DNA of 64,000 nucleotides from Rhodocytophaga aerolata (GCF_030503435.1 NZ_JAUKPO010000001.1:940766-1004765); one strand, 5' to 3'; shown: positions 21,334 through 50,876, counted from the first letter of the stretch. Numbers and translations are program-made. The notes: a model not told the origin generated them from the letters alone.

Positions 21334-22320
21334 TCACGATTTCTTAGTGTCTTTGCCAGGATTAGCTATTGCATCCCGCATATCTGTATCGGCCTGGATA
21401 TTCTGCATCCGGTAATAATCCATGATACCTAGATTACCATTTCTGAAAGCTTCTGCCAGCGCTTTAGGTACTTCCGACTCTGCCTCAATTACTTTGGCAC
21501 GCGCTTCCTGCGCTTTGGCACGCATCTCCTGCTCCACAGCTACAGCCATTGCCCTCCGTTCTTCTGCTTTGGCTTCGGCAACTTTCAGATCGGCATTAGC
21601 CTGGTCTATTTGTAGTTTTGCGCCAATGTTTGCACCCACATCTATATCGGCAATATCAATGGAGAGAATTTCATAGGCTGTGCCAGCATCCAAGCCTTTT
21701 TGTAATACCAGACGTGAGATTTTATCCGGATTCTCCAGTACTTCTTTATGCGATGTAGACGAACCAATAGAGGTAACAATGCCCTCTCCTACCCTTGCCA
21801 GAATAGTTTCCTCTCCGGCTCCTCCTACCAACTGTGAAATATTTACACGTACCGTTACTCTGGCTTTGGCTACCAGTTGAATGCCATCCTGTGCTACGGC
21901 AGCTACATTGGGTGTGTTTATCACTCTGGGATTTACTGAGATTTGCACTGCTTCAAATACATCTCTTCCGGCCAGATCAATAGCGGCCGCCTGTTTAAAA
22001 GATAGATTAATATTTGCTTTATCCGCAGAAATCAGGGCTTTTATGACAGAAGGCACATGTCCGCCAGCCAGATAATGCGTTTCCAGATCAGCAGTAGTTA
22101 AGTTCAATCCTGCTTTGGTAGAAGTAATAAGGGATTGTACAATTAAGCTTGGGGGCACTTTCCGTATCCGCATAAAGACCAGTTCGAATAAGCCCACTTT
22201 TACGCCGGAAAAGATAGCGGTAATCCAAAGATTGACAGGTACAAAATATAAGAAAACAAAAAAGGCTACAATAGCCCCTAATATCAAAAATATAAGGTAA
22301 ACACCGGATGCTTCGCCCAT
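21334..22320 (-). CDS. floA: Flotillin-like protein FloA (YqfA/UPF0365, SPFH family)
   Basis: 328 aa. Near-colinear similarity to the B. subtilis FloA pattern ([37 protein letters not shown]). Confidence 0.9.
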
Positions 22321-22462
22321 AGCTTAAAAGAATTATATGTGAAGGAGTTAAAACTAAACTGCAAGTAGCCGCCTTGTTTTGGTATTGGAAGGCAGTATGC
22401 CATGTCTACCTGCTGTTTTTTCAAACAAGGTACACTCTTTTATAGACATATACTATTGAAAC

Positions 22463-22930
22463 CTATTCAGAAGCTGTAACAAAAATTTTATTTGTATCAA
22501 ACCGTACAATTCTAACCAGGCAACCAGCTTCTAAAAAGGGGCCTAAGGTATGCACTTCTACAATGGCTTCATTAAATTGAGCTTTTCCGGAAGGTTTCAA
22601 GGTAGATATTGCCTTGCCCATATCCCCAATTTTCAAAAGTACTTTGTTTTCGTCATTTACCTTACTGCTGATTGTGTGGTTCAGGGCAAACTTGCGCCAA
22701 ACGCCAGACCGTAAGCCATATACTAAGGCAATGCCAGTAAGGGCAACAAAGCCGCCAAGAATACTGAAACCCATTACAGCGCCTAAGCTTTTAAAGCTGA
22801 TAAATATACCAATGACAGCTAATATGAGCCCGGCAAGCCCAAAAATGGTGGTACCTGGTATAAAAATTATTTCTAATACAATAAGTGCTAAGCTAAACAC
22901 CAATAACACTATTATAGCCATCCATTCCAT
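22463..22930 (-). CDS. NfeD-family membrane protein (YqeZ/YqfB-like, OB-fold C-terminus)
   Basis: 155 aa. Two TM segments plus a C-terminal beta domain. Immediately upstream of floA on the same strand. Confidence 0.8.
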   Translation of the reverse strand: MEWMAIIVLLVFSLALIVLEIIFIPGTTIFGLAGLILAVIGIFISFKSLGAVMGFSILGGFVALTGIALVYGLRSGVWRKFALNHTISSKVNDENKVLLKIGDMGKAISTLKPSGKAQFNEAIVEVHTLGPFLEAGCLVRIVRFDTNKIFVTASE

Positions 22931-23040: not shown

Positions 23041-24675
23041 CTATTTTTTAGCTTTGTCCGCTTGTTTAACTCTATACAATATTACTGAATCTACGTCAGC
23101 TAGTTTTTCAAGCGGTGGTTTATTTTTTTTCTTCCATTGATCCCATTCCATAAAACTGCCAAAGGTTTCGCGGAAAGTATGTGGATTATACAGGACAAAT
23201 GTGCTGCTATAGGCTTCAGAATGTAGTCCATCTGCTTTGGCAAAGTCGGTAAACGTATAATTCGCTGGCGGCTGAAACTGGTAAAACCAGTTATAGGTTA
23301 AGGCTAAACGCTGGTCGGTAATTACCAGATGAGTACCGTTTGTATGGCTGAGATAGGTATTGAATAACTTTTTTTCGGCCTGGTACCCCCATTGCTGCGG
23401 ACGAAACATGCGGTATAATGGAATAGATAAACCGATAAGAACAAACAACAGGTGCATCGTCTGTAAGAAATACTTAAACCGATTAATGGCAGGCAATAAA
23501 GCTACAAAGGCGTAGGCAGTATATATCAACGTATATTTAGATTGCACCCAGAAGCAATAACCGGCAACGGCAGCAAACAATATAAACAACCAGATACGTG
23601 CTTTGGACGAATTTTCTGCTTTTACCCAAAAAAAGCCTGCTAATATAGCGAAGGGCGGCAGTAACGGAAAATACATCCTGGGCAGCAAGTTAAGCGGATT
23701 ATAATACCGCAGACTAGTAGTGCCAAAGTAAAAACACAAGAGAAACAGAACAGCAAACCAGCTCCAGAAATTCTCCATCGTTCCAAGACTGAATTTCTCT
23801 TTCCTGATACTGGCTAGAGCCATAACCAATCCTGGCAATATAGCCACCAACAACCCTGATTCAGTAAACATTTGCCAGGGTGCATAGGTAAGCCGTACAA
23901 GCAAGTAGGAAAAAGGTTTATCGTAATAACTTTCCGCATGCGTATAGTGGTTATCCATAATACTATTGAAGCGGTAAAAAGCATCGCCTGTATATAGATA
24001 ATAGATTAAAAAATAAGCAAAAAATAATACCAAGCCAGACAGGACAGTGCTATATGTAAATTGATGAGCAGCTTTGCTTCGTTGTAGCCATGCTTGTACT
24101 ACCAGAAAGCCGAAAAAGGGCCAGCAATACAGGCTGGTTTCTTTGGTCAGAAAAGCAGCAAAAAGCAAAGCAGCTATCCCTATGCCAGATTTTACCGGAT
24201 AAAGTTGCCTGTATTGCTGGGCAATAATTCCTGCCAAAAGACAAAAGAGGGTAACTAAGGTATCTGGAATGAGTTTATCAATAAAGAAAAGAAAATAGGA
24301 ATTTAACCCAGTAATTGCTACTGCATATAGGCATAGTGCCTTTTGTTTTCTCAGGTATAGAAAAAGTATGGTTAAAGTGCCTAAGAAAGCAGTTGCAGGT
24401 ATTAGTACAGCTGAAAAGTCATTGATACCAAATAAGGAAAAGGAACAAGCTAGTAGGGCGATAAAAACCAACCGATGTGTAAATGTATCATATATAACAG
24501 AAAAGCTGCCCTTCGTCAACTGAAAGGCAGCTCTTGCATATTCATAATCATCATAGAAATAATATCCACTGAATGTCCGCCAGATATACGTGCTGTAGCA
24601 TAAGATAATGCCAATGGCTACTAAGAAAGTATAGATAGATTGTGCTTTACTTATTCTTCCTTTTACCAGAGACAT
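23041..24675 (-). CDS. GT-C-fold glycosyltransferase (ArnT/PMT-like, family 39/83)
   Basis: 544 aa with about 12 TM segments. DDYEYARAA in the first periplasmic loop resembles the ArnT/PMT DE motif. Confidence 0.55.
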   Translation of the reverse strand: MSLVKGRISKAQSIYTFLVAIGIILCYSTYIWRTFSGYYFYDDYEYARAAFQLTKGSFSVIYDTFTHRLVFIALLACSFSLFGINDFSAVLIPATAFLGTLTILFLYLRKQKALCLYAVAITGLNSYFLFFIDKLIPDTLVTLFCLLAGIIAQQYRQLYPVKSGIGIAALLFAAFLTKETSLYCWPFFGFLVVQAWLQRSKAAHQFTYSTVLSGLVLFFAYFLIYYLYTGDAFYRFNSIMDNHYTHAESYYDKPFSYLLVRLTYAPWQMFTESGLLVAILPGLVMALASIRKEKFSLGTMENFWSWFAVLFLLCFYFGTTSLRYYNPLNLLPRMYFPLLPPFAILAGFFWVKAENSSKARIWLFILFAAVAGYCFWVQSKYTLIYTAYAFVALLPAINRFKYFLQTMHLLFVLIGLSIPLYRMFRPQQWGYQAEKKLFNTYLSHTNGTHLVITDQRLALTYNWFYQFQPPANYTFTDFAKADGLHSEAYSSTFVLYNPHTFRETFGSFMEWDQWKKKNKPPLEKLADVDSVILYRVKQADKAKK

Positions 24676-24733: not shown

Positions 24734-26209
24734 TTAATACGCCCTGGCAAATACTACTCTTCTGCTGGAGGGTTTACCGCTATACATACATTTACCCTCT
24801 TCCGGCTGGGCATTTATTGGAATACACCGGATAGTAGCTTTGGTTTCGTCCTTTATTATTTCTTCTGTTTCGGAAGTACCATCCCAGTGTGCTAGAACAA
24901 AACCACCTTTGCTATCCAGCACTTCTTTAAATTCTGCATAGGAATCTACTTTTGTGGTGTTCGCCTGGCGGAAAGCTAGTGCTTTATTATAAATATTCTG
25001 TTGTATATCTTCGAGCAAGGTTTCTATATGGTTTGCCAGACCTTCCAGGGCATATACTTTTTTCTCCTTAGTATCGCGGCGGGCTACTTCAGCTGTTCCG
25101 TTTTCCAGGTCGCGTGGGCCTATTGCAATACGTACAGGCACGCCCTTCAACTCATAATCAGCAAATTTATAGCCTGGCGAATGCGTATCGCGGGTATCAA
25201 ACTTCACACTAATGCCCTTTGCTAACAGTTCATTCCTTACTACCTGCACCTTTTCGGAAATTTTGGCTAATTGCTCCTCGCCTTTAAAAATCGGCACAAT
25301 TACTACTTGGATAGGAGCCAGTTTAGGGGGTAACACCAATCCTTCATCATCAGAATGCGCCATAATTAAAGCTCCCATCAGCCTGGTACTTACGCCCCAA
25401 GAAGTACCCCACACATAATCTAATTTACCCTCCTTATTGGCAAACTTTACATCAAAAGCTTTCGCAAAATTCTGTCCCAAAAAGTGAGAAGTGCCAGCCT
25501 GTAAGGCTTTGCCATCTTGCATCAGCGCTTCAATGCAATACGTATCTTCAGCACCAGCGAAACGCTCATTGGGTGTTTTAACCCCTCGGATAACCGGCAA
25601 TGCCAAATGTTGTTCAGCAAAGGTAGCATAGACCTCTAGCATTTGCAGCGTTTCTTCTTGGGCTTCTTTTGCTGTAGCATGTGCTGTATGGCCCTCCTGC
25701 CAAAGGAATTCCGCTGTACGCAAAAATATTCTGGTCCGCATTTCCCAGCGTACTACGTTTGCCCACTGATTAAGTAGAATTGGCAGATCCCGGTATGATT
25801 GTACCCAGTTTTTATACGCACTCCATATAACTGTTTCTGAAGTAGGCCGGATAATTAGTTCCTCTTCCAGCTTTGCTTCCGGATCTACAATAACCCCGCT
25901 TCCATCGGGTGCATTTTTTAAGCGATAGTGTGTAACTACTGCACATTCTTTAGCAAATCCTTCTACGTGACTGGCCTCTTTACTCAGGTAAGATTTAGGA
26001 ATAAAAATTGGAAAATAGGCATTGGTATGCCCAGTATCTTTAAACATTTTATCTAATGCAGCCTGCATCTTTTCCCAAATAGAAAAACCATAGGGCTTTA
26101 TAATCATACAACCTCTAACAGGCGAATTTTCAGCCAAGTCCGCTCTTTTTACTAATTCGTTATACCACAGTGAGTAATCCTCATTTCTTTTAGGAAGTCC
26201 CTTGCTCAT
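24734..26209 (-). CDS. proS: Proline--tRNA ligase (archaeal/eukaryote-like type)
   Basis: 491 aa. Class II aaRS motifs and a C-terminal zinc-binding-like domain. Confidence 0.9.
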
Positions 26210-26440
26210 TGTATTATCTGATAAATTTAGTAGAATTTTTCTGGTATAAATTTTGTTTAATTTGATAGGGCAAAAGTCTTATAATTTCATAACTTTAGGT
26301 AATATTTTTGCAAATTATTCACTTTTGCCGGTAACAGTACAGGGGCAAATATAGTTTATTATATAAACAACCACCCAACTATTAAAAAAACCGTATAAAT
26401 TATAAATTTCCGGGCATTGCCTACGTTAACTATAGTACTT

Positions 26441-27865
26441 ATGAAAACTACTCAATCATTAAAATACTTATTATTTGCGGGAATTGTTGGCGTCTGGGGA
26501 TGCAGTAGCCAGCAGTACTCGCAGAACCAGGAATATGATGACTTATATTTCTCCTCTAAAGATAGAGAGCAAGTAACGCTTACAGCTTCTGCCTCTTCCA
26601 CCGACTATTCCAATATTGAAAATAAAGGAGTAGCTAGTGAAGATTACAGTCAGAAAAACGTAAACCCAGAGTATATTCAGCAATATGCCGATCAGAACCG
26701 GCAAAATTCCAGCACAACTAATAATGATAGTTACAGTGCAGACGACAATTCTTATTACGATGAGAATTACAGCCGGAATAATAACCCGATCGGCTTAGCC
26801 AGAGGCTACGAAAGGTACAACAATGGCGGTACCACTGTTAATGTATTTCCTAGCATTGGCTTCGGTGGCGGATACTATGGTGGCTCTGCTTTTTACGATC
26901 CATTCTATGATCCTTATTTCTTTAATAATGGTTTTTACGATCCATTCTTCAACCGTCCATTTTATGGCCGACCAGGCTGGAATATCAACATAAGCTATAA
27001 CTATGGATGGGGAAACCCATGGGGCTGGGGAAGAAGTGCCTATTGGTATGATCCATTCTACAATCCTTACAGATCTTGGGGTTACTGGGGAGATCCGTAT
27101 TACAGTGGATTTTATAACAGACCTTACTACGGATGGGGTGGCGGATGGAATCGCAACAATGTGATAATTGTCAATCCAGGTAACGATAATGGTTCCCGTC
27201 AGGTACGGACTAGTCCACGTAGTAACAGAGGTTCCGCTGTTGTGAATGATAACTTCAACAATACACCAAGAACTACACGCGACACCCGTGGTGGAAGAGT
27301 AGATCAATCGGAAGGTGCTGCTGGTACTAATACATCCCCTAACTATTCTGATAATACAAACAGGAGACCGTCTAATGTCAGCACAGATGAAAGCAGACCT
27401 GCCAGAGCCATACGGCCTAGAAGTGATGCTAATCCTGACTATCAGCCACAAAACACTCAGCCGAGTTATAACAATAATTCAGGCAACAGAACATATTCTC
27501 CGAATGTGAATAATGGTTCTAACGATGGTGGTATAACAAATCCGCGTGCTGTACGTCCACGTAGTAATAATGATAGTTATCAGAACCAAAATAGCAACAG
27601 ATCCTACGATAATAATTCCAATAGATCCAGTGCGCCAACGTATAACAGCACACCTTCTTCCGGAAGATCACCCAGAACGTATGACAACTCCAGAAGCAAC
27701 AATAGCTGGAACAACAACTCTAGTAACGACAGCTATCGTTCAAATGGAAGTTTCAACAATAATTCGTCTGGTGGCTCTTATTCAAGTCCAAGTTCTGCAC
27801 CTAGCAGAAGCAGCAGTAGTGGTAGCAGCAGCGGCGGCAGTTCTCCACGAAGATCACCTAGATAG
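26441..27865 (+). CDS. Low-complexity N/S/Y/W/G/R-rich disordered lipoprotein
   Basis: The track start is a TTG; the ATG at 26441 gives MKTTQSLKYLLFAGIVGVWGCSS, a lipobox. Aromatic-Gly block with YDPFY / WGxxW repeats, then an S/N/R-rich tail with RPRS repeats and a poly-Ser end. Confidence 0.6.
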   Translation: MKTTQSLKYLLFAGIVGVWGCSSQQYSQNQEYDDLYFSSKDREQVTLTASASSTDYSNIENKGVASEDYSQKNVNPEYIQQYADQNRQNSSTTNNDSYSADDNSYYDENYSRNNNPIGLARGYERYNNGGTTVNVFPSIGFGGGYYGGSAFYDPFYDPYFFNNGFYDPFFNRPFYGRPGWNINISYNYGWGNPWGWGRSAYWYDPFYNPYRSWGYWGDPYYSGFYNRPYYGWGGGWNRNNVIIVNPGNDNGSRQVRTSPRSNRGSAVVNDNFNNTPRTTRDTRGGRVDQSEGAAGTNTSPNYSDNTNRRPSNVSTDESRPARAIRPRSDANPDYQPQNTQPSYNNNSGNRTYSPNVNNGSNDGGITNPRAVRPRSNNDSYQNQNSNRSYDNNSNRSSAPTYNSTPSSGRSPRTYDNSRSNNSWNNNSSNDSYRSNGSFNNNSSGGSYSSPSSAPSRSSSSGSSSGGSSPRRSPR

Positions 27866-27899
27866 TGACAGCCGCTATTGTTGATTAGACATTCTAGCT

Positions 27900-29435
27900 A
27901 TGCATAAAAGATTAATTATTGCCAGTATAGGAATTTTACTTCCTGTACTGGCTAGTTACGCCCAGACTGCAGAAGATGCATTACTGTTTTCTAATACCTC
28001 TGTTAATGGCACGGCCAGGTTTCAGGGAATGGGAGGTGCTCAAACAGCCTTGGGGGCTGATATCAGTTCTATTTCAGGCAACCCCGCTGGCTTAGGTTTT
28101 TTCCGCAAATCTGAATGGAGCATTACCCCTAGTATAGGTTTTTCCAATACCCAGTCTAATTACTTAAATACAGTTACATCAGATGGCAAAAGTTATCTAA
28201 ATGTAGCAAATATGGGTATTGTGTTTGCCAAGCCAAAAGATGCAATTGTTGGAGGAAAATGGCGCGGAGGTGCTTTCGGTATAAGCTTTAACCGGATGAG
28301 CAGTTATCAGAGACAGGTTTCTTATCAGGGTGTAAACAATGTAAATTCTCTTCTGGACTCCTTCACAGACCAGGCTACAGGTATTACATTAGGTGATTTT
28401 GAAGGAAGCCTGGGTCCTCCACGACTTCAAGCCGCTTTTGATACTTATCTGATCAATCCTTTCTCTAATGATATCAATGAAGATAGATGGTTCAGTTCAA
28501 TTGGAGAAATAGAAACTTCGCCGGGTCAATATATCCAGGCGCCGGTACAGCAAAATGAAACTATTAACTACACCGGAGCCCGTAATCAGTGGAATTTATC
28601 TTATGGAGGCAACTATGATGACAAGTTATATTTTGGCGCTTCTGTAGGAATTTCAAACATCCGTTTTGGCCAGCAGAACCGGTATAGAGAAGTAGTACAA
28701 GCAAGACCTGAAGATCTTATTGTAGATAATTTTACTCTTACAGAAGATATAGATGTGAGAGGCACCGGTGTTAATTTAACGGCGGGTATAATTTATAAAG
28801 CAAATGATATTATTCGCTTCGGAGCTTCGTTTACTAGCCCAACTTGGTACAGACTAACGGACAATTACATTCCTAGAATCCAAGCTAATTTTGAATATCC
28901 GGAATTTTTTGATCCTGCTATAGAACGTTACCAAGACAAGACTATTGAGGTGGAACCTTTACGGTATAACCTAACTACTCCTTTAAGTATATCTGGCGGT
29001 CTGGCTTTGTTTGCAGGTAAAAATGGCTTTATTACAGCAGATGTTACTTATAGCACCTATAATAGTATTCGCTTTGGCAATAGCAATGAAGTAGATTTTG
29101 GGTCAGAAAATGAATTCATCAGCCGAAATTATCAGCCTACCGTTAATGCCAGAATAGGAGGCGAGTTCCGGAAAGATATTTTCAGGCTACGTGCGGGCGC
29201 AGGTTATCAAACAGATCCTTACAAAGATTTAGTGGATGATTTAAATAGACAAGTATTAAATTTTAGCGCTGGCGCTGGTATTCGCCTGCCGGAGTTTTAT
29301 ATTGATTTAGCTGTAGTGCATAATCGTTTTGACAACGGATATACACCCTATACTATTTCAAATCAGGCTACACCTTCAGTCATTATAAAAAACCGGTTAA
29401 CGAATGCTGTGTTATCTTTTGGAATGTTCTTTTAA
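27900..29435 (+). CDS. Outer-membrane beta-barrel protein (FadL/OmpP1/PorV-like)
   Basis: Signal peptide ...LASYAQ. N-terminal FQGMGGAQTALGADISSISGNPAGLGF motif. Alternating beta-strand pattern ending in a terminal aromatic (GMFF). Confidence 0.55.
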   Translation: MHKRLIIASIGILLPVLASYAQTAEDALLFSNTSVNGTARFQGMGGAQTALGADISSISGNPAGLGFFRKSEWSITPSIGFSNTQSNYLNTVTSDGKSYLNVANMGIVFAKPKDAIVGGKWRGGAFGISFNRMSSYQRQVSYQGVNNVNSLLDSFTDQATGITLGDFEGSLGPPRLQAAFDTYLINPFSNDINEDRWFSSIGEIETSPGQYIQAPVQQNETINYTGARNQWNLSYGGNYDDKLYFGASVGISNIRFGQQNRYREVVQARPEDLIVDNFTLTEDIDVRGTGVNLTAGIIYKANDIIRFGASFTSPTWYRLTDNYIPRIQANFEYPEFFDPAIERYQDKTIEVEPLRYNLTTPLSISGGLALFAGKNGFITADVTYSTYNSIRFGNSNEVDFGSENEFISRNYQPTVNARIGGEFRKDIFRLRAGAGYQTDPYKDLVDDLNRQVLNFSAGAGIRLPEFYIDLAVVHNRFDNGYTPYTISNQATPSVIIKNRLTNAVLSFGMFF

Positions 29436-29474: not shown

Positions 29475-29738
29475 GTGGATAATAAAGTATATGCAAGCTT
29501 AAAACAGAAACTAGACGAGCAATTTGCTTGGCCTATGTTGTATATGTTCAAGTTCATTGTTCCGGAAGCTAACAAAGATAAAGTAATCACTTTGTTTAAT
29601 AAACACGATGTTAGCAGCCGGGATTCTAAAAATGGGAATTACGTGAGCCTGACAATTCAGATGTTTATGAAATCAAGCGAAGACGTAATTGATGTGTATA
29701 AAAAAGCTTCTACTATAGAAGGTTTAATTGCTTTGTAA
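29475..29738 (+). CDS. DUF493/YbeD-family (UPF0250) protein
   Basis: 87 aa with a GTG start. Colinear with E. coli YbeD (FAWPMLYMFKFIVP ~ FPTPFTYKVMG; SKNGNYVSLTIQM ~ SKGNYHSVSITI). Confidence 0.7.
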   Translation: MDNKVYASLKQKLDEQFAWPMLYMFKFIVPEANKDKVITLFNKHDVSSRDSKNGNYVSLTIQMFMKSSEDVIDVYKKASTIEGLIAL

Positions 29739-29765
29739 AAACTAAATAATATAGGTATCAGGGAA

Positions 29766-29797
29766 AAGGATGAAGTTTAGACTTCATCCTTTTTTGT
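29766..29797 (+). terminator. Rho-independent terminator
   Basis: aaggatgaagt-ttag-acttcatcctt followed by TTTTTGTTTC. Confidence 0.75.
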
Positions 29798-30191: not shown

Positions 30192-30893
30192 ATGAAAGAG
30201 TTACTAGAAGCTTCTGTTTCACTAGTAAATGTTATTCCTACGACTTTACTGGTTTTTGTGATTCTGTATTGGCTCATAGTTATACTCGGGCTGATAGATA
30301 TGGATGCCATAAATTTAGATCTGGACCACGATGTAACGGTGGAACATGAAATTCATACTACTTTCCACACACATGCCGATATTCCAACAAAAGATGTAGC
30401 TGTGAAGGAAATGCACAACACAGAAGTAGCCAACTCTGGTAATTGGATGCAGGCTGCGCTTGTATTTTTTAACCTGGGTAAAGTGCCTTTTATGGTATTT
30501 ATGAGCTTTCTGATTCTACCTATATGGGCTATTTCTATCCTAGTGAATCATTATTTGGGAAACAGTTCGATACTTGTTGCTATAGCATTATTGATTCCGA
30601 ATATACTTATCAGTTTCTTTATAGCAAAAATTTTGACTACCCCTTTTGTCAAGGTATTCAGTTACTTGCAAAACGATCCGGATAAACAGCAAGTTTTAGG
30701 GCAAATTTGTACAGTGCTCCTGCCTGCCGGTTCTGGAAAATTAGGCCAGGCGGTTATCAACAACAAAGGCAATACCATACTTTTAAATGTAAAGTCGGCA
30801 GATGGCCATACATTAGAAAAAGGAAAAAGTGCCCTTGTTCTTGAGTTTAATAAAGAAAAACAATACTATTTAATTCAATCCTTTGATCAATAA
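30192..30893 (+). CDS. NfeD-like / YuaF-like membrane protein with C-terminal OB-fold-like domain
   Basis: 233 aa. Three to four TM segments, a His/acidic loop (DLDHDVTVEHEIHTTFHTH) and a C-terminal beta-rich soluble domain. 7 bp upstream of the flotillin gene. Confidence 0.6.
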   Translation: MKELLEASVSLVNVIPTTLLVFVILYWLIVILGLIDMDAINLDLDHDVTVEHEIHTTFHTHADIPTKDVAVKEMHNTEVANSGNWMQAALVFFNLGKVPFMVFMSFLILPIWAISILVNHYLGNSSILVAIALLIPNILISFFIAKILTTPFVKVFSYLQNDPDKQQVLGQICTVLLPAGSGKLGQAVINNKGNTILLNVKSADGHTLEKGKSALVLEFNKEKQYYLIQSFDQ

Positions 30894-30899
30894 ACAACT

Positions 30900-33101
30900 A
30901 TGTTCACATCTGTAACTTTCGCGGTTATAATTTTTATAGCCTTTTTTCTGATTGCCACCCTTATTTTTATAGCCAACTGCTATCACAAAGCAGAGCAAGG
31001 CATGGCCTTGATAAAAACTGGTGTTGGCGGTACGCATGTTTCTTTTTCAGGTATGATTGTCATTCCGGTAATGCACAGACTAGAGATGATGGATATTTCC
31101 CTGAAAACAGTAGTTATTTCCCGGCAGGGTAAAGAAGGATTGATTTGTAAGGACAATTTACGGGCAGATATTAAAGTAACTTTCTTTGTGCGGGTAAACA
31201 AAACAGAGCAAGATGTTATTCAGGTAGGCCAGTCTATTGGTTGCCGTAGAGCCTCCGATACTAAAGCATTGGAAGACCTATTTGATGCTAAATTCTCCGA
31301 AGCCCTGAAAACAGTAGGTAAAAAATTTGACTTTATTGAACTGTATAATTCCAGAGAACTCTTTAAGCAAGAAATTCTGCAAATTATAGGTACAGATTTG
31401 AATGGCTATATCCTCGACGATTGTGCCATTGATTACCTGGAACAAACTCATATTGAGGCATTGAATGAAAATAATATTATGGATGCGGAAGGCATCAAAA
31501 AGATTATTGAACTGACTGCCAAACAAAAAATAATGGCCAATCATTTTGAGCGGGAAAAAGAAAAAACCATTACCCAGCAGAACGTGCAAGCGAAGGAAGC
31601 TATACTGGAACTGAACCGGCAGTTGGCAGAAACCGAAGAAAAGCAAAAGCGGGAAATTGCTTCTATCCGTGCCCGTGAAGAAGCTGAAATCGCTGTAATT
31701 CAGCAGCAAGAACGGCTGAAAGCAGAAAAAGCACGCATTCAAACTGAAGAAGAATCCCGTGTAGCCGAAGAAAATCGCGACCGTCAGATTATAGTAGCGC
31801 AGAAGAATAAAGAACGCGTAGAAGCTGTAGAAAAAGAAAGAGTAGATAAAGACCGTTTACTGGAAGTTACAGAAAAACAACGGATCGTTACACTTGCTGA
31901 CATTGCCAAAGAGAAAGCCATTGAAGAAGAACGCAAGAATATTCAGGAAGTAATCCGCGAAAGAGTAGCTGTACAAAAAGCAGTAGTGGCCGAAGAAGAA
32001 AAGATAAAAGATACCCAAGCATTTGCTCAGGCAGACCGTGAAAAATCCGTAGCTATCAAACGTGCGGAAATGCTAGCGGAAGAATCATTGGTTCAACAAA
32101 TAAAAGCTGCCGAAGCTGACCGCCAGTCTGCCGAATTGAAAGCCAAACGCCTAGTAGTAGAAGCTGAAGCAGAGCAAGCCACTGCCGGCAAAAAAGCAGA
32201 AGCCATTAAAATACTGGCCGATGCTGAAGCCGCCAAAGCAGCCGCTGTAGGAGTAGCAGAAGCCCAGGTAATTCAAGCTAAAGCCTTGGCCAAAGAAAAA
32301 GATGGTAAGGCGGATGCTACGGTTATAGAGAACAAAGCCATAGCTGAAGCTAAAGGCATAGAGGTGATGGCGAAAGCGCAGGCAGAGGCTGATGAAAAAT
32401 TAGGCTTAGTGGCTGCCAAGATCAACAAAGAGAAAGGCTTATCCGATGCCAATGTAATTGAAGTAAAAGCGCAGGCAGAAGAGAAAAAAGGCTTAACAGA
32501 AGCTAAAATTATGCATGAGAAGTTCACAGCGGAAGCCAAAGGTATTGAAAGCAAGGCAGATGCTATGCGTAAATTAGACGGCGTAGGCAAGGAACACGAA
32601 GAGTTTAAGTTGAGATTACAGAAAGAAAAAGACGTTGAACTGGCTATGATCAACATTCAGAAAGCAATTGCCGATGCACAAGCTACCGTATTGGGAGAAG
32701 CCCTGAAAGTATCTAAAATTGATATTGTGGGTGGCGAAACTATGTTCTTCGACAAACTGGTGAATTCCATTAGCAATGGAAAGTCTGTAGATAAACTGTT
32801 TACCAATAGCCATGTACTGACAGATGTTAAAAACACGTTCTTTACCAATGGAAACGGCAATGGACACAGTAATGGAAAAGATGACCCCAAAGCTATATTC
32901 AGAGATAATCTGAAGAAGCTGGTAGATCAGTTTGGCATTACATCAGAAGATGTAAAAAACCTGAGTGTGGCTGCCCTCCTGATGCAGATGTCTAAGTTGG
33001 CTGACGATAAAGAATCCAAAGGCTTGCTTAATCAACTGATGCAAATGGCTAAAAAGAAAGGCGTTTCTGACGATGCTGCGCAGACTTTAGGTATCTGGTA
33101 A
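30900..33101 (+). CDS. Flotillin-family protein (FloT/YuaG-like: TM hairpin, SPFH domain, EA-repeat flotillin domain, about 200-aa C-terminal extension)
   Basis: 733 aa. N-terminal TM, a band-7 core and long AEAEA/KAEAEK coiled-coil repeats. Confidence 0.8.
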   Translation: MFTSVTFAVIIFIAFFLIATLIFIANCYHKAEQGMALIKTGVGGTHVSFSGMIVIPVMHRLEMMDISLKTVVISRQGKEGLICKDNLRADIKVTFFVRVNKTEQDVIQVGQSIGCRRASDTKALEDLFDAKFSEALKTVGKKFDFIELYNSRELFKQEILQIIGTDLNGYILDDCAIDYLEQTHIEALNENNIMDAEGIKKIIELTAKQKIMANHFEREKEKTITQQNVQAKEAILELNRQLAETEEKQKREIASIRAREEAEIAVIQQQERLKAEKARIQTEEESRVAEENRDRQIIVAQKNKERVEAVEKERVDKDRLLEVTEKQRIVTLADIAKEKAIEEERKNIQEVIRERVAVQKAVVAEEEKIKDTQAFAQADREKSVAIKRAEMLAEESLVQQIKAAEADRQSAELKAKRLVVEAEAEQATAGKKAEAIKILADAEAAKAAAVGVAEAQVIQAKALAKEKDGKADATVIENKAIAEAKGIEVMAKAQAEADEKLGLVAAKINKEKGLSDANVIEVKAQAEEKKGLTEAKIMHEKFTAEAKGIESKADAMRKLDGVGKEHEEFKLRLQKEKDVELAMINIQKAIADAQATVLGEALKVSKIDIVGGETMFFDKLVNSISNGKSVDKLFTNSHVLTDVKNTFFTNGNGNGHSNGKDDPKAIFRDNLKKLVDQFGITSEDVKNLSVAALLMQMSKLADDKESKGLLNQLMQMAKKKGVSDDAAQTLGIW

Positions 33102-33316
33102 AAAATGAGTACATAGATGCTCATAGGTAGGAATGTTACTATATAAAAAAGCTAGTAACATATGCCTTCAATTTAACAAAAGTAATTTTTCTGACTGTGT
33201 GCTGTTATCAAAAATGACAGCATACAGTCTTCTACCTATCTTACAGATCATTCACCGAAGAATGGTCAACTAGCTTTATAGATAAGCTAATCTTCAAGTA
33301 AAGATTTATTAGCTCC

Positions 33317-36300
33317 ATGGCAAATCCAACCCCAGCAATAAAAGAAAATCCGGTAAAAGAAGCACATCTGGAAGAAGGCACTTATGAAATAATCCGGAAC
33401 CGCTTGCGTAAACAAGGAAACGAACTGCGCACCCGACTCGATACATTGAATCACAAAAGGCGTGAAGTATTTGGTTCTATTGAAACACGTTTGCTGGCTA
33501 CCGAACGCATTACTACCGACAACAACTGTGTCCCAGTAGACATGGTTCCTGTAAATGACCTGTTCATTTTTGGATACAATGTACACATGGGCCTAAAAAC
33601 AGAGACTAGTATTAGTGATGTATTTAGTGTTTACCGGTATCAAAACCACAGTTTCGTTCAACAGCCTTTAGATTTAATTGCAGACAAACGTTTTGAAGAA
33701 GATTTTAAGAATCTCTACAAATACTACCGGAATACACAGTTTGCCAAATTTGCTTTATTAGGTCAGCGGCTGTTTATGATTTTTCAGGTTGGAAAAAGCC
33801 AGGATGATATCAAAACCTTTAAATGGGTAATAGAAGGAGACAAACTAACCTATGTGGATAACCGCAGTGAAGGCGAATTTTCATATCCGGACCAGTACCA
33901 GTTTAAATGGAAACGAACCTCCCGCGAAGCACGCAGAGAAGGAAAGTTCCCACATATATCTATCGCTGACCGGGTATTTGTTGAAACCATCGGCGGCGAT
34001 CTTACGATCAAAATAGAAAATAACACAGCCAGTGGAGAGGGCATTTATTCAGAAGAGGTAAAACACAAAGACCAGACCCTGGACGATGCGGAAATCTTCT
34101 ATGCCATAATTGGGAGCATTGTGGTACTCAAAATCAAACCATTTCAGGAAAATGAGTATCGCTATATTGTATACAATGAAAAAATCCGGCAGGCACGCCG
34201 CATAGATTCCCTGAAAGATTCCTGCGTATTTCTACCCGACGACCACGGAATTATTTTCGCAAATGGGTATTATCTGCAAACTGGAGAATACAAGCTATTC
34301 GATACTCAAATGGCTAATATGCTTTTTGAAAAACGTATTGCTTCTCCCAATGGCGAAGATTTTCTATATATATTTTATAGCAAGGTTACCGGCATTTATG
34401 AGTTACTCTCCTATAACCTCATAGAACAAAAAGTGGCCATTCCAATTATTTGCCATGGCTATTCCATCTTTGAAAATGGCGAACTCTGCTATTTTAAAGG
34501 AGAAGACGAGCCTAAGAAACATCATGTTGTACAAATCTGGCAGACACCCTATGTAGACCCTAACTTTCCCCTGCACACAAGCAATAGTGAGTCCTATTTG
34601 TATAAAATCGGCAATAAAGATGTAGTTAGGGCAATGGCCGAATGCAACGAACTGCTCACGTTAATCGACCGGGACGACAGTTATGCCAACTTGTATCTGG
34701 ATCTGGTAAAGATGTCTACCGATATTATAGACTCTTACCACTGGCTTAATAAAGAAGAAACCCTTCGTTTGATTGAGCCGCTAGCAGAGCTAAAGCAATC
34801 GGCCTCAACGGCCATTGAGGAGTTTGAAAAAGTAACCCGTATCAAAAAGAATACAGCTGTTGAGGTAGAACGGGTAACTGGCAAAATCACAAAAGTATTT
34901 GCAGATGTCAAACGGCAACAGCCCGAAAGTATTGATTATTTTGTACATTTTCTGGCTGAACTGCGCACCCTACGAGGAGAAACTATTTCGCTAAAAAGCC
35001 TGCGGTATGTAGCCATTTCTTCCATTGAAAGTAAGGAAAAAGAAATTGAAGCATATACTACAAAACTATCTGATGAGTGTGTGCAGTTTTTATTAAAAGA
35101 CGATGCGTTACTGCCCTACCACCAGAAAGTTACACTGCTGCAAGAGCATATCAACAAAATAGAAAAAGTAATAGATGCCAGCAAAACAGAAGAAGAAATA
35201 ACCAAAACATCGCAGGAACTGGAGATGTTGATAGAGGTGGTAAGTAACCTCAAAATTGAGGATGCTACCCAAACCACGCGGATCATTGACAATATTTCTT
35301 CTATTTATGCCCATTTCAACCAGATTAAAGCTGCCCTTAAACGCAAAAGACAGGAATTAGTAGGTATAGAAGGCAAAGCTGAGTTCGCCTCCCAGTTAAA
35401 ACTTATAGATCAGGGAGTGGCCAATTATCTGGATATTAGTGAAACACCTCAGAAATGCGATGAATACATCACTAAGCTAATGGTGCAACTGGAAGAGCTG
35501 GAAGGAAAATTCACCGAATTTGAAGAGTTTACGGAAAAAATTACAGAAAAGCGGGAAGAAATATACAATGCCTTTGAAAGCAAAAAACTAAGCCTGATTG
35601 AAGCCAGAAATAAACGTGCCACTAGCCTGCTGCAATCAGCCGAACGGATACTCAAAGGGATTAATAACCGGGTAACTTCTTTTGCTACCAGCTCAGAAAT
35701 TAACGGCTACTTCGCCTCTGATCTCATGGTAGATAAGGTACGCGATATTATTAAGCAATTAATTGAAATTGGCGATACCGTAAAATCAGATGACATCCAA
35801 AGCCGTCTAAAAACTGCCCAGGAAGAAGCCATACGCCAGCTGAAAGACCGCCAGGAATTATTTGTAGATGGAGCCTCTATTATTAAGTTTGGCGACTTTA
35901 AGTTTTCTGTCAATACGCAGCCATTAGATCTGACGATGGTCTACCGCAACGGAGATATGTATTACCATTTAACAGGGACTAATTTCTTTGAGAAAGTAAC
36001 CAATGCCGCTTTTAACAACTCCCGTAACGTATGGGAACAAAGCTTAGTGTCGGAAAACAAACAAGTATACCGCGCCGAATATCTGGCTTATCAGATAATT
36101 AAGAAGGCACAAGAAGCTGAAAAAACTTCTGTATCTAACGGAATGCAATACCTGACTCTGGAAGTTCTACATAAGTTAACCGATGAAGAGTTACTTGCCT
36201 ACATTCAGAAGTTTATGGCTCCCAGGTACAATGAAGGCTATATAAAAGGAGTGCATGACCATGATACACGGATATTACTCCGGGCATTGCTGAACTTTAC

Positions 36301-38257
36301 TCAAACAATAGATCTGCTGAGGTACCCTTCTGCAGCCCGTGCCTGTGCTTCGCTTTACTGGCAATACTTTGCCGATGCCGGCCACAAACAACTTATGTAT
36401 CACCGGCTGAAAGGGGTGGGCATTATTTTACAAGTATTTCCGAAAACCCGGGAATTTGGCGGAATTATAGAAGAACTACAGGCTGAGATAGCTGCATTTA
36501 GCCGGGAGAATAAATTATTTAGTGAGACTTTTGCACCCGAAGCTGGGGAGTACCTATTCTACGAAATTACCCGCAGCGACAGTTTTATTGCGGATGCTGA
36601 GGCGGCGGATTTGTATAATCAGTTTATGCACTATTTGGCATCCAACCATTCTGCCGACAGATACCACAGTTCCATAGAAGCGCTGGAAAATACACCCATT
36701 GCCCGGTTTAAATTAATTAAAAAATGGCTGGGCGCTTATATTGATTTTATTTATCAGGAAGCTAAACGGGAGTATTTAGATGAAACGGCTGTCCTGTTAT
36801 ATGGGGAAGATCTGGAGAAAAAGAAAGTGATTCAGCTATCTCTTAAGTCTGAAATAGAAGGCTTGCAAGGTTCACATGCTGTAATAGAAAATGGCCGGTA
36901 TCAGCTGGATTATAACAGCTTCATGACTAAACTGAAACTATTTGATACGCAACTAGTACCTGAGTTCAGCCAATTTCAGGATACAAAGAAAAAGCTATTG
37001 GAAGAATTTAAACAAGATCTGCGGTTGGAAGAATTTAAATCTCACGTTCTGACTTCCTTCATCCGGAACAAACTGATAGATCAGGTATATCTTCCATTGA
37101 TTGGAGCTAACTTAGCCAAGCAGATTGGTACGGCTGGCGATACTAAACGTACCGACCGTATGGGTATGTTGCTATTAATTTCACCTCCGGGATATGGTAA
37201 AACCACCTTAATGGAGTACATAGCCAACCGTCTGGGAATTATTTTTATGAAGATCAACGGACCAGCTATAGGACATAAAGTTACTTCATTAGATCCTGCA
37301 GAAGCACCGAATGCCTCAGCCCGGGAAGAAATTGAAAAGCTTAGTCTGGCCCTTGAAATGGGTGATAATGTCATGTTGTATCTGGATGATATTCAGCATT
37401 GTAATCCGGAGTTTTTACAGAAATTCATTTCCCTGTGCGATGCTCAACGTAAAATAGAGGCTGTATACAAAGGCAAAAGCCGCACCTATGACTTACGTGG
37501 CAAAAAAGTATGTGTAGTCATGGCCGGTAATCCCTATACCGAAAGTGGTGAAAAGTTCCAGATTCCGGATATGCTAGCCAACCGGGCTGACATTTACAAC
37601 CTCGGCGACATTATTGGCAATGCAAGTGAGGCTTTCAAACTGAGCTACATAGAAAACAGCCTGACCTCTAACCCGGTTATGCAAAGGTTGAGCAATAAGA
37701 GCCATGCAGATGTGTTGGCGATAGTCCGACTAGCTCAGACTGGTAGCAAAGATGGCATTACCTATGAAGCAAGTCATTCGGCAGAAGAAATTAATGAATA
37801 TGTAGCGGTACTGAAAAAGTTATTAGTTATTCAGGAAGTTATTTTGAAAGTAAACAAAGAATATATTCATTCGGCTGCACAGGCAGATGAGTTCCGTACA
37901 GAACCTCCTTTCAAACTACAAGGTTCTTACCGGAATATGAATAAAATGGCTGACAAAGTGGTAGCCTTAATGAATGACCAGGAATTGGAGATGGTTATCC
38001 AGACGCATTACGAAAATGAAGCCCAGACATTAACTACCGGAGCTGAGGCCAATCTGTTAAAATTTAAAGAACTCATAGGAAAATTAACACCCACAGAACA
38101 ACAACGATGGGAAAATATTAAGGCTACTTACGTAAAGAATAAGAAGATGAGAGGATTAGGCACTGATAATCAGGTAGGGCAAGTAGTTTTAACTATGGAA
38201 TCTATTTCGGAAGGCTTGCAAGGTATAAAACAAGCTCTTTTAACAAAGGAAGAATAA
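33317..38257 (+). CDS. Giant (1,646 aa) coiled-coil protein with C-terminal MoxR/AAA_5-like AAA+ ATPase core
   Basis: Walker A LLLISPPGYGKTT (about nt 37180-37215). Walker B VMLYLDDIQH (about nt 37365-37395). Sensor/Arg region MAGNP...NRADIYNLGD. The upstream 1,250 aa or so have no recognisable motif and include a long E/K/L-rich heptad region (aa about 480-900). Automated pipelines may label such proteins DNA repair ATPase; that is from memory and unverified. Confidence 0.7.
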   Translation: MANPTPAIKENPVKEAHLEEGTYEIIRNRLRKQGNELRTRLDTLNHKRREVFGSIETRLLATERITTDNNCVPVDMVPVNDLFIFGYNVHMGLKTETSISDVFSVYRYQNHSFVQQPLDLIADKRFEEDFKNLYKYYRNTQFAKFALLGQRLFMIFQVGKSQDDIKTFKWVIEGDKLTYVDNRSEGEFSYPDQYQFKWKRTSREARREGKFPHISIADRVFVETIGGDLTIKIENNTASGEGIYSEEVKHKDQTLDDAEIFYAIIGSIVVLKIKPFQENEYRYIVYNEKIRQARRIDSLKDSCVFLPDDHGIIFANGYYLQTGEYKLFDTQMANMLFEKRIASPNGEDFLYIFYSKVTGIYELLSYNLIEQKVAIPIICHGYSIFENGELCYFKGEDEPKKHHVVQIWQTPYVDPNFPLHTSNSESYLYKIGNKDVVRAMAECNELLTLIDRDDSYANLYLDLVKMSTDIIDSYHWLNKEETLRLIEPLAELKQSASTAIEEFEKVTRIKKNTAVEVERVTGKITKVFADVKRQQPESIDYFVHFLAELRTLRGETISLKSLRYVAISSIESKEKEIEAYTTKLSDECVQFLLKDDALLPYHQKVTLLQEHINKIEKVIDASKTEEEITKTSQELEMLIEVVSNLKIEDATQTTRIIDNISSIYAHFNQIKAALKRKRQELVGIEGKAEFASQLKLIDQGVANYLDISETPQKCDEYITKLMVQLEELEGKFTEFEEFTEKITEKREEIYNAFESKKLSLIEARNKRATSLLQSAERILKGINNRVTSFATSSEINGYFASDLMVDKVRDIIKQLIEIGDTVKSDDIQSRLKTAQEEAIRQLKDRQELFVDGASIIKFGDFKFSVNTQPLDLTMVYRNGDMYYHLTGTNFFEKVTNAAFNNSRNVWEQSLVSENKQVYRAEYLAYQIIKKAQEAEKTSVSNGMQYLTLEVLHKLTDEELLAYIQKFMAPRYNEGYIKGVHDHDTRILLRALLNFTQTIDLLRYPSAARACASLYWQYFADAGHKQLMYHRLKGVGIILQVFPKTREFGGIIEELQAEIAAFSRENKLFSETFAPEAGEYLFYEITRSDSFIADAEAADLYNQFMHYLASNHSADRYHSSIEALENTPIARFKLIKKWLGAYIDFIYQEAKREYLDETAVLLYGEDLEKKKVIQLSLKSEIEGLQGSHAVIENGRYQLDYNSFMTKLKLFDTQLVPEFSQFQDTKKKLLEEFKQDLRLEEFKSHVLTSFIRNKLIDQVYLPLIGANLAKQIGTAGDTKRTDRMGMLLLISPPGYGKTTLMEYIANRLGIIFMKINGPAIGHKVTSLDPAEAPNASAREEIEKLSLALEMGDNVMLYLDDIQHCNPEFLQKFISLCDAQRKIEAVYKGKSRTYDLRGKKVCVVMAGNPYTESGEKFQIPDMLANRADIYNLGDIIGNASEAFKLSYIENSLTSNPVMQRLSNKSHADVLAIVRLAQTGSKDGITYEASHSAEEINEYVAVLKKLLVIQEVILKVNKEYIHSAAQADEFRTEPPFKLQGSYRNMNKMADKVVALMNDQELEMVIQTHYENEAQTLTTGAEANLLKFKELIGKLTPTEQQRWENIKATYVKNKKMRGLGTDNQVGQVVLTMESISEGLQGIKQALLTKEE

Positions 38258-47220: not shown

Positions 47221-47309
47221 CCAATTTGAAAATTTGGGATGAGGAAGTTTCAAACCAACAGTTAATCCTTTTCCCATTTTTCAAATCATCACATTTCAAA
47301 TTATTCACC

Positions 47310-49718: not shown

Positions 49719-49810
49719 GAAAGGTATTATCCTGTTAACATGCAGATACAACCACTACTTGAAAAACTATTTCAAAATTCATTTGTCATTCATTAGTAAC
49801 TATTATTCCC

Positions 49811-49990
49811 ATGTCTGTTATTTTAGTTTTAGTCACATTAAGCATGCTTGTAGCTGGAAGTTTTCTGGGAGCTTTTATTTGGGCTATGAAAAGCGGACAG
49901 TATGAAGATACGTTTTCCCCTTCTGTACGCATGTTGTTTGAAGAAAAGACGGAAGAAGATACAGCGCCTAAAAAAGGGCTCAAAAAATAA
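49811..49990 (+). CDS. ccoS: cbb3-type cytochrome oxidase assembly protein CcoS (59 aa, absent from ORF track)
   Basis: MSVILVLVTLSMLVAGSFLGAFIWAMKSGQYEDTFSPSVRMLFEE... matches the CcoS/FixS consensus (single TM plus SGQYDD box). It is in the expected position after ccoI. Confidence 0.8.
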   Translation: MSVILVLVTLSMLVAGSFLGAFIWAMKSGQYEDTFSPSVRMLFEEKTEEDTAPKKGLKK

Positions 49991-50129
49991 ATCTTTAGGC
50001 AGCTTAAGAACACAGGCTACAGAGGAATCAGTGTGGTGGGGAAATTAGCAATTTGTATACCTCGTCTGCCATTTATTAAGCATCCATTTTCACCTGATAA
50101 TTTATTCTTTTCTTAATCTACAAACCTTT

Positions 50130-50876
50130 ATGATTATACTTGCCTTTTTCCTGGCTCATTGGTACCTGTCGTTGTTTGCGCAAACTTTCTTTCTACACCG
50201 CTATGCAGCACATCAAATGTTTACCATGAATAAAACCTGGGAAAAAATATTCTACATTCTTACGTTCATCTTCCAGGGTTCTTCCTTTTTAAGTCCGCGG
50301 GCGTATGGCATTATGCACCGCCTGCACCATGCCTATGCTGATACGGAAAATGATCCCCACTCTCCGCGTTACTCCGACAACCTGTTCGATATGATGTGGA
50401 AGACCAAAAGTATTTACAATGATATCTTAAAAGACAAAGCTAAATTTGATAAGAAGTTTTATAAGAATATACCCAACTGGCAATTTATGGAACGCCTGGG
50501 TGATACTTGGGCAGTTCGGGTAGGCTGGGGCGTTTTGTAATCTCTTTTCTATATTCAGTTTGCTACCGAGTGGTGGATGTTTTTATTACTGCCTATACAT
50601 TTCTTTATGGGGCCTGTGCATGGGGCCATTATTAATTGGTTTGCTCATAAGTTTGGCTATGTAAATTACAAAGTTGGCGATACAGCCAAAAACCTGTTGC
50701 CATTCGACTTTTTAATGATGGGCGAAAGCTACCATAACAACCATCATAAATTTGGAGGCAGGGCAAATTTTGGCATTAAGTGGCATGAATTTGATCCAAC
50801 GTATCCGGTCATCCTGCTGCTCAATAGCCTGAAAGTAATTAAACTCAAAAAGAATAATGACTTAATATATATGTAA
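50130..50876 (+). pseudogene. Acyl-lipid/acyl-CoA fatty-acid desaturase interrupted by an in-frame TAA (50538-50540)
   Basis: His boxes HRYAAH and HRLHH sit in the 5' part. HNNHH sits in the 3' part. Both parts are in the same reading frame, separated only by a TAA. Confidence 0.65.

Follow-up and report, generated by a model that had tools for sequence, protein, structure and literature searches.

The window analysed here is a stretch of 64,000 nucleotides from Rhodocytophaga aerolata (GCF_030503435.1 NZ_JAUKPO010000001.1:940766-1004765), and our subject is a pair of adjacent genes on its plus strand. The first (26441..27865, stop codon included) encodes a lipoprotein of 474 amino acids (aa), hereafter the partner, and the second (27900..29435, stop codon included) encodes an outer-membrane barrel protein of 511 aa, which is 100% identical to R. 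aerolata Q0590_03945. We found that these genes form a conserved module, in which a protein predicted to be disordered is paired with a barrel of the FadL superfamily. The reading we favour, tentatively and with a rough probability of 0.4, is that the partner is tethered to the outer membrane, faces the periplasm and is docked at the FadL-type barrel. An earlier reading of this region from its sequence (the original prediction) had suggested a substrate-plus-channel or anchor system, with a surface-exposed lipoprotein of amyloid-like or adhesive character exported or anchored through the barrel. Its description of the locus was accurate: the two open reading frames (ORFs), the 34-bp gap between them (27866-27899) and the motifs it quoted are all present as described.

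The partner begins with a signal peptide and lipobox (26441..26503, aa 1-21, ...GIVGVWG-C21, lipobox VWGC), in which Cys21 follows a hydrophobic signal peptide, as in bacterial lipoproteins processed by signal peptidase II (SPII). An alternative start, TTG, is found at 26417, and the ATG at 26441 is favoured because conservation between this protein and that of a 78%-identical close relative (locus L081) begins at MKT.QSLKY. The mature chain comprises three blocks, with isoelectric points (pI) of 4.2, 6.2 and 11.2, respectively. The acidic block (26504..26845, ~aa 22-135) is rich in S, N, Q and D; it contains the N-terminal motif E-Y-D-D-L-Y-F (26531..26551, aa 31-37), of which D33 and Y36 are invariant, as well as the conserved short motifs NVNPEY (26657-26674) and YYDENY (26753-26770). 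The second block (26846..27151, aa 136-237) is rich in aromatic residues, Gly, Pro and Asn and has repeated (D/N)-P-aromatic turns, with 39% aromatic residues (Y+F+W), 20% Gly and 10% Pro over aa 138-237. Here, YDPFY occurs twice (aa 152-156 and 203-207), WGNPWGWG at aa 190-197 and FYNRPYYGWGGGWN at aa 224-237, and D167-P168-F169 is nearly invariant. The remaining half is basic and rich in Arg, Ser, Asn and Pro (27152..27862, aa 238-474, with the pI taken over ~aa 250-474); it carries RPRS/PSRS-type repeats (RPRS itself at aa 325-328 and 372-375) and a Ser-rich tail (aa 455-474), and its C-terminal ...SSGGSSPRRSPR tail is conserved. Overall, the partner contains 16% S, 15.4% N, 9.7% G, 9.1% Y, 8.2% R and 7% P. 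The original prediction had described the whole first half as aromatic-Gly repeats. Such sequence is present, but only at ~aa 136-237, as aa 22-135 form the acidic block; the S/N/R/P-rich second half with its RPRS repeats and Ser-rich tail was found as predicted, and proved to be strongly basic. Tandem repeats were looked for at the DNA level in the partner gene and none was found. Two overlapping ORFs (26795-27451, minus strand; 27546-27884, plus strand) are by-products of its low-complexity sequence.

In an AlphaFold2 model based on a 67-sequence alignment, the partner had a mean pLDDT (predicted local distance difference test) value of only 45.7, and even with 67 homologues 379 of its 474 residues were below 50. 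The sole secondary structure was a helix at aa 5-19, in the signal peptide, and no strand was assigned by DSSP. On the basis of this model, disorder is predicted along the whole length of the mature partner, in line with the absence of globular sequence that had been noticed at first. Comparison with L081 revealed a saturated proportion of synonymous differences (pS 0.72) and a low proportion of nonsynonymous ones (pN 0.12), that is, a pN/pS of 0.17 overall. The aromatic block was the most constrained part of the partner gene (0.13), and the corresponding values were 0.22 for the barrel gene and 0.065 for proS (prolyl-tRNA synthetase), the divergent neighbour of the pair. Both genes are real and under purifying selection. 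A word-seeded search identified 171 homologues of the partner, and a profile of 67 homologues matched 234, 1489 and 3094 clusters at E<=1e-30, 1e-10 and 1e-3, respectively, in a database of 1.84 billion representatives. The best 150 profile matches were all collinear and full-length, with sizes of 211-571 aa (most of them 390-570 aa). Thus, the concern attached to the original prediction, that the lipoprotein ORF might have neither homologues nor a coding signal, was dispelled by the pN/pS value and by the 171 homologues. No family match to the partner could be detected in Pfam, NCBIfam or PADLOC.

We compared the block architecture of 73 orthologues and found that the pattern of charge and composition holds across all of them. 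A Cys at the lipobox position is present in 64 members, and in the other nine the Cys is missing and an AxA|Q signal-peptidase-I site is found. The D(D/N)xY core of the N-terminal motif occurs in all 73 members (full form D-(D/N)-(L/M/V)-Y-(F/Y/G)), and it lies 11-14 residues after the Cys in 59 out of 59 members in which both could be matched. The acidic block of the family is S/T/N/Q-rich, with NP(D/E)(Y/F) in 64 of the 73; the centre is ~30% aromatic and ~25% Gly, again with (D/N)-P-aromatic turns; and the basic half has 13-15% Arg (92% of K+R) and PSRS-type repeats, with C-termini of the form ...GGSRGGRG(N/R) or SRGPR. In longer members, the additional sequence is either a charged helix that follows the motif or a duplicate of the basic block, likewise ending in SRSRGGN, and no extra folded domain is present, so that domain fusions were rejected as a clue to function; one of these longer members is mislabelled 'Lpp' by a source.

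Two further features of the family were observed. The Cys-less partners, in which the AxA|Q site stands directly before DDLYF, belong to loci L012, L013, L016, L025 (Imperialibacter), L009, L017, L019, L032 and L080, and many lipidated orthologues retain '...QYAQ' a few residues after the Cys, which resembles a relic or precursor of the AxA|Q site. In addition, D-(S/T) dipeptides are ~3- to 6-fold depleted in the window partner and 72 orthologues, and the Bacteroidota O-glycosylation sequon D-(S/T)-(A/I/L/V/M/T) was observed 10 times in the family against 58±7 expected. Avoidance of the sequon as a specific effect was rejected, since D-(S/T)-(G/N/Q) is equally depleted.

The barrel protein has a signal peptide at aa 1-21 (cleavage ...SYA|Q22), a hatch or plug domain at aa 22-71 (27963..28112) and a 14-strand barrel at aa 72-511 (28113..29432) that ends in a C-terminal Phe. 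Its AlphaFold2 model (pLDDT 84) recovered both the hatch and the 14 strands, and a Foldseek search assigned it to the FadL/OMPP1/TodX superfamily with an E-value of ~1e-16. The structure-comparison figures were highest for E. coli FadL (33.4), TodX (32.9) and the P. aeruginosa FadL homologue (32.6), followed by three solved BamG chains (31.4-31.9), PorV (25.4) and FapF (12.4), and the Foldseek order of relatives agrees (FadL/TodX, then BamG, PorV and FapF). The sequence G-N-P-A-G-L-G (28077-28097), which includes the 'NPA' motif of FadL (N61-P62-A63), is invariant in both barrel alignments. According to this model, the barrel has the FadL-superfamily fold of 14 strands with a hatch and an NPA motif, and the FadL-like barrel that had been proposed was borne out, including its strand count and plug. 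Conservation decreases from the hatch (0.73) to the periplasm-proximal strand ends (0.68), the extracellular strand ends (0.46) and the loops (0.37).

By sequence, the barrel is distant from all solved or curated proteins. Its match to Pfam PF03349 (Toluene_X) covers aa 241-443 only, and with 28.1 bits (E 9.5e-7) falls below the gathering threshold of 29.7, although some of its homologues carry a precomputed PF03349 match. A profile of the barrel family found no PDB chain at E<=1. Membership in the PorV/PorQ group, the other family suggested at first, was rejected, as the PorV_fam score was 26.4 bits against 90 and the PorQ cut-off of 220 bits was not reached either.

A local likeness between the two proteins was also noticed: the periplasmic turn T2 of the barrel, 'YDDKLYF' (28614-28634, aa 239-245), resembles 'YDDLYF' in the motif of the partner (26531-26551, aa 31-37). 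In a profile-profile comparison of DDLYF with the barrel family, 'NYDDKLYFGA' scored best (10.3, the next being 5.8), and 1.8% of column-shuffled motifs reached 10.3. The turn reads 'NFNHKLF' in Algoriphagus and is not universal, and the N-terminus of the hatch, 'YxEDALRFS', ranks sixth. Judged from these sequences, the likeness may be chance or strand mimicry; DDLYF as a mimic of a barrel peptide was a post-hoc comparison that is unexplained, and it was excluded from the evidence.

To characterize the association between the two genes, we used the barrel as the query against one-genome-per-species contigs and surveyed 80 loci. Five of them had too little upstream DNA, which left 75 informative loci. 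An intact, co-directional partner gene was found directly 5' of the barrel gene, separated from it by 6-372 bp (median <100 bp), in 72 of the 75; two others had a frameshifted partner and one (L015) a different context, so that the partner was present in 74. Only 47 of the partners could be detected by phmmer, and the rest were recognised by architecture. The reverse test, starting from three weak homologues of the partner, recovered the order proS|partner|barrel|aroK in three out of three. The divergent proS lies 5' of the pair in 70 of the 80 loci, and a convergent aroK closes the unit directly 3' of the barrel in 61; therefore, the conserved unit consists of exactly the partner and the barrel. 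Walking from the most divergent locus led to Sphingobacteriales (Pedobacter and Daejeonella) and also to Sporocytophaga, with the order proS(-)|partner(+)|barrel(+) and with shorter partners (304-439 aa) of unchanged plan. The module thus occurs in Cytophagales and Sphingobacteriales, and probably in Flavobacteriales. Across 68 genomes, pairwise distances of partner and barrel were correlated with an r of 0.93, which may be somewhat inflated (see below), compared with 0.74-0.75 for each of them against proS; the partial r given proS was 0.84 (Mantel p ~0.001). The pairing noted in the original prediction is confirmed by these data and proves deeply conserved.

With regard to the claim that the barrel is dedicated to the lipoprotein, the presence of the partner in 74 of the 75 informative loci agrees with it, whereas the remaining locus does not: at L015:349-7509, a 38%-identical paralogue of the barrel ends a cluster resembling a polysaccharide utilization locus, with SusC (1043 aa), SusD (497 aa) and a 171-aa lipoprotein, and has no disordered partner. 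The barrel subfamily therefore has at least one other use. A frameshift was also noticed in the partner gene of Rhodocytophaga rosea (CP048222.1, L082:4440-5896), which is split into calls of 305 and 121 aa; the frame switches near L082:5350, and the C-terminal ...SSPRSPR tail is read in a different frame. The split, which lies in a complete genome, reflects either a sequencing error or a pseudogene, and comparable ones were seen in two loci from metagenome-assembled genomes (L008 and L065).

A similarly arranged pair is known from Flavobacterium johnsoniae, where Fjoh_4939 is proS, Fjoh_4940 an SPII lipoprotein and Fjoh_4941 a FadL-type barrel with a signal peptidase I (SPI) signal (PMC12045153). 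This arrangement resembles the window module in its proS, in its SPII lipoprotein without a Pfam domain and in its SPI FadL-type barrel. In that study, Fjoh_4940 was listed as a 'periplasm-facing lipoprotein' with function not known and without a Pfam domain, both proteins were detected in membrane proteomes, and depletion of TamL raised Fjoh_4940 by 2.6-fold and Fjoh_4941 by 5.6-fold (PMC12045153). The authors remarked that the proximity of the two genes 'might indicate a functional link', and described neither the disorder of the lipoprotein nor the conservation of the pair (PMC12045153). No further mention of Fjoh_4940/Fjoh_4941 was found in the literature searched, and our literature searches found no described partner-barrel pair of Cytophagales. 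If the Flavobacterium pair is orthologous, the partner is an expressed protein.

Which side of the outer membrane the partner faces was assessed using the Bacteroidota rule for surface lipoproteins, which calls for two or more acidic residues among the six that follow the Cys (PMC12578637). The window partner reads C-SSQQYS and has none. Among the 64 lipidated members of the family, 61 have no acidic residue at these six positions and three have one. By comparison, nine of 15 other lipoproteins in the surveyed loci have at least two, and at L015 both SusD (CGEEFLD) and the small 171-aa lipoprotein (CDKEFEDD) satisfy the rule, which therefore discriminates in these genomes. A type IX secretion system (T9SS) C-terminal domain was also looked for in the partner and not found, as there was no match in Pfam or NCBIfam and no folded C-terminal domain in the model. 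Given the missing export signal, the nine of 73 members without lipidation and the lack of a T9SS domain, a periplasmic location is the default reading, and judging by its sequence the partner probably faces the periplasm rather than the cell surface. The surface exposure envisaged in the original prediction thus receives no support from 61 of the 64 lipidated members, from the nine Cys-less ones or from the controls.

On the basis of these results, the favoured reading can be put as follows. The partner (~45 kDa) would be exported by Sec and usually lipidated on Cys21, and without the Bacteroidota export signal it would stay on the periplasmic face of the outer membrane. There, the N-terminal DDLYF peptide, 11-14 residues from the lipid, might dock the partner on the barrel, by analogy with BamH, whose conserved N-terminal tail fits into a groove on the FadL-like BamG and whose gene may stand in one operon with that of its barrel, as in bamG2-bamH2 (PMC12611786, PMC12578637). 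The acidic block, the aromatic/Gly 'sticker' block and the Arg/Ser-rich basic block would then hang into the periplasm. Their make-up would suit low-affinity, multivalent contacts with membrane interfaces, peptidoglycan or hydrophobic cargo; multivalent 'sticker' interactions classically involve Tyr-rich and Arg-rich blocks. As to its role, the pair would contribute to the homeostasis of the outer membrane or of lipids and not to adhesion; such a role is pointed to because the barrel keeps the hallmarks of FadL transport and because the probable Flavobacterium orthologues respond to TamL depletion.

Several considerations weigh against this reading. We infer the physical contact between partner and barrel, as well as the periplasmic topology and the physiological role of the pair, and no domain, neighbour or fusion points to that role. 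The export rule was defined in Bacteroidia and Flavobacteriia, and for Cytophagales it was calibrated here indirectly, through the lipoproteins of the surveyed loci. A barrel dedicated to the partner might in principle stand in for the general export route, and the fixed spacing from the Cys to DDLYF could itself be a sorting signal. The mirror-tree correlation may be inflated, since both proteins evolve fast and proS evolves slowly with saturating distances. The barrel paralogue of L015 functions without a disordered partner. Finally, the homology of Fjoh_4940/Fjoh_4941 to this pair rests on synteny and description, which makes them probable orthologues.

A more speculative extension, which we regard as rather improbable, is that the partner is an envelope counterpart of FUS-type 'sticker-and-spacer' proteins, with the lipid and DDLYF as its tether, and forms a layer of condensate-like or hydrogel nature beneath (or on) the outer membrane. 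As in the FUS-family prion-like and RGG proteins and in resilin, a Tyr-rich 'sticker' block is followed by an Arg-rich block; however, the likeness is compositional only, and the window partner is a secreted protein, lipid-anchored in a bacterial envelope. If such a layer exists, it would link the lateral gate of the barrel with the periplasm; it might, for instance, act on lipids as a buffer or greasy conduit, or serve these flexible gliding rods as an elastic tether between outer membrane and cell wall. It would represent a new mode of periplasm organisation, and the barrel would be the first of the FadL family in which a disordered subunit is obligatory.

Among the competing explanations, the one that survives best, while still doubtful, is close to the original prediction: a substrate with its channel or surface anchor, in which the barrel exports or displays the disordered protein as adhesive, matrix or coat material, and DDLYF at a fixed distance from the lipid serves its cognate barrel as a private export signal. 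In favour of this are the strict pairing and co-variation, the fixed spacing of 11-14 residues between Cys and motif, and the Tyr/Gly/Arg composition, which resembles that of adhesive or elastomeric proteins; for a narrow barrel, no cargo is easier than an unfolded chain. Moreover, threading of a lipoprotein through a barrel (RcsF-OmpA) and barrel-dependent lipoprotein export (Slam) occur in Proteobacteria. RcsF with OmpA/C/F and the Slam-dependent lipoproteins resemble the window pair in that a lipoprotein with a disordered segment is coupled to a barrel, but they belong to unrelated families with folded domains, and neither threading nor surface exposure is indicated for the window pair. The topological data given above argue against export, namely the signal absent from 61 of 64 members, the nine of 73 without lipidation and the missing T9SS domain, and in F. 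johnsoniae the syntenic lipoprotein was placed in the periplasm-facing class. The idea of a channel for the partner also sits poorly with the barrel itself, in which the plug and the NPA motif are the most conserved parts; to our knowledge, no member of the FadL family translocates a protein.

The related suggestion of a functional amyloid was rejected. Like the curli (CsgA/CsgG) and Fap (FapC/FapF) systems, the locus encodes an unfolded, low-complexity secreted protein beside an outer-membrane protein. In contrast to the curli and Fap subunits, the partner has no imperfect beta-solenoid or other tandem repeats and no predicted beta structure (DSSP assigned no strand), and its aromatic block is Pro/Gly-rich (20% Gly and 10% Pro). 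No cognate secretion channel of the CsgG or FapF type was found.

A second alternative, which we consider unlikely, is that the barrel imports a hydrophobic nutrient or lipid in the ordinary FadL-type manner and that the partner is a disordered periplasmic accessory, whose aromatic block receives or buffers cargo leaving the lateral gate, or regulates the hatch, while its basic tail reaches towards the inner membrane. The barrel shares its 14 strands, N-terminal hatch and invariant NPA motif with FadL, TodX and TbuX (PF03349), its N-terminus in R. aerolata is about as short as that of E. coli FadL, and DSSP breaks strand S3 of the model at aa 136-137, a possible counterpart of the S3 kink by which the lateral opening arises in this superfamily. 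The rise of Fjoh_4940/Fjoh_4941 on TamL depletion, a stress of lipid and outer-membrane homeostasis, and the strong constraint on the aromatic block would also fit. However, known FadL/TodX transporters need no lipoprotein partner, whereas here a disordered partner gene appears obligatory, and there are no linked genes for fatty-acid or aromatic catabolism, the neighbours being proS, aroK, folP and MauE/DoxX. The window barrel is also ~90 residues longer than these transporters, mainly owing to an extracellular L2 insertion of ~70 residues (28338-28544, aa 147-215); it remains below the Pfam threshold for Toluene_X (28.1 against 29.7) and has no sequence match to any solved FadL.

It is very unlikely that the pair is an alternative BamG/BamH-like ('BamG2H2'-type) accessory of the machinery for beta-barrel assembly (BAM) that assembles a subset of outer-membrane proteins. 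The logic is the same, as BamG-BamH and BamG2-BamH2 also combine a FadL-fold, 14-strand barrel with a lipoprotein, often from adjacent genes or one operon, and a conserved N-terminal tail next to the lipid, which in BamH binds the barrel. The best NCBIfam match of the barrel is indeed BamG (NF053685), but it scored 38.7 bits against a cut-off of 250, and a phmmer search of the barrel against solved chains at E<=10 returned four chance matches to YTHDC2 and no BamG; identity with BamG was rejected on these grounds. It is also contradicted by the existence of separate BamG candidates in Cytophagales, where proteins of ~400-430 aa match BtBamG of B. thetaiotaomicron at 1e-29 to 1e-41 (PMC12578637 Supplementary Table 3), and C. 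hutchinsonii has CHU_3271 as BamG and CHU_3837 as BamH (PMC12611786 Supplementary Table 1). Furthermore, BamG has an N-terminal extension of ~10-12 residues that fills its lateral opening, and no conserved counterpart was found in the barrel family, where the mature N-terminus before DAL(R)FS varies from ~3 to ~20 residues and is unconserved. The lipoproteins differ as well: BamH is a folded two-domain scaffold with a carbohydrate-binding-like fold, surface-exposed and with an export signal, whereas the window partner is predicted to be disordered and has no such signal.

Finally, that the two genes are mere neighbours, functionally unrelated within a conserved housekeeping region, is highly improbable, because although SPFH/NfeD, proS, the pair, aroK, MauE/DoxX and folP are syntenic across the order and adjacency may be inherited, the pair shares one strand with a short gap and no terminator, persists where the flanks change (Rhodocytophaga, Pedobacter, Daejeonella), still co-varies once the proS signal is removed and is co-regulated in its syntenic F. 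johnsoniae form.

Within the window, proS (24734..26209, minus strand) is the divergent gene upstream of the pair and the conserved synteny anchor of the module. The intergenic region between it and the partner contains a match to TAnnTTTG, the Bacteroidota -7 promoter consensus (TATTTTTG, 26303..26310, plus strand), ~130 nt 5' of the ATG, which is a pattern match only; a sigma-70 scan found sites to be no more numerous than in shuffled sequence. No terminator-like site was found between the partner and barrel genes. Downstream of the barrel lies a DUF493/YbeD-like gene of 87 aa (29475..29738, plus strand; Pfam PF04359), which is probably co-transcribed with the pair here and falls outside the conserved unit, as elsewhere it was found 3' of the pair only in the close relative L081. 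A terminator-like hairpin with a 15-bp stem followed by a T-run (29762..29795, plus strand) closes the transcription unit.

Other genes of the window were also noted. Beyond proS, a FloA/SPFH (328 aa) and NfeD (155 aa) pair is encoded at 21334-22930 on the minus strand, and its position is kept in 40 of the 80 loci; therefore, the whole region is an old syntenic block. Between NfeD and proS, a polytopic membrane protein of 544 aa (23041-24675, minus strand) is encoded by what appears to be a Rhodocytophaga-specific insertion, because none of the other 80 loci has the gene; the L081 counterpart matches PMT_2 (ArnT-like glycosyltransferase) weakly. Downstream of the hairpin, a three-gene cluster (30192-38257, plus strand) encodes a 233-aa membrane protein, a 733-aa coiled-coil, flotillin-like protein without a Pfam match and a 1646-aa protein with DUF3686, DUF7902 and an AAA ATPase domain, and this trio is also present 3' of the pair in L081. 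PADLOC gave no match for the partner-barrel pair or for the downstream trio, and a defence-system role of the pair was rejected. More distant is a cbb3-type oxidase region (47226-59174) with a CcoI-like P-type ATPase (47226-49718), a fused CcoN-CcoO (54169-56301) and a FixG/CcoG ferredoxin (57639-59174); the strand opposite to the oxidase genes carries a PAS histidine kinase (51983-53659).

The outer membrane of Bacteroidota is built around pairs of a barrel and a lipoprotein, such as SusCD and BamGH, and the module described here would be a third widespread type. Its partner is predicted to have no fold yet is constrained like the barrel, and belongs to an unnamed family with a single passing mention in the literature, that of a probable orthologue. 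The module is present in tractable species, including Pedobacter, relatives of Cytophaga and, if orthology holds, F. johnsoniae. It is relevant to the exit of hydrophobic molecules from FadL-type channels and their passage across the periplasm, to the roles of disordered proteins in the envelope and to the response of the outer membrane to lipid stress such as TamL depletion. If the partner is instead exported, the module would bear on the unsolved route of lipoprotein export in Bacteroidota.

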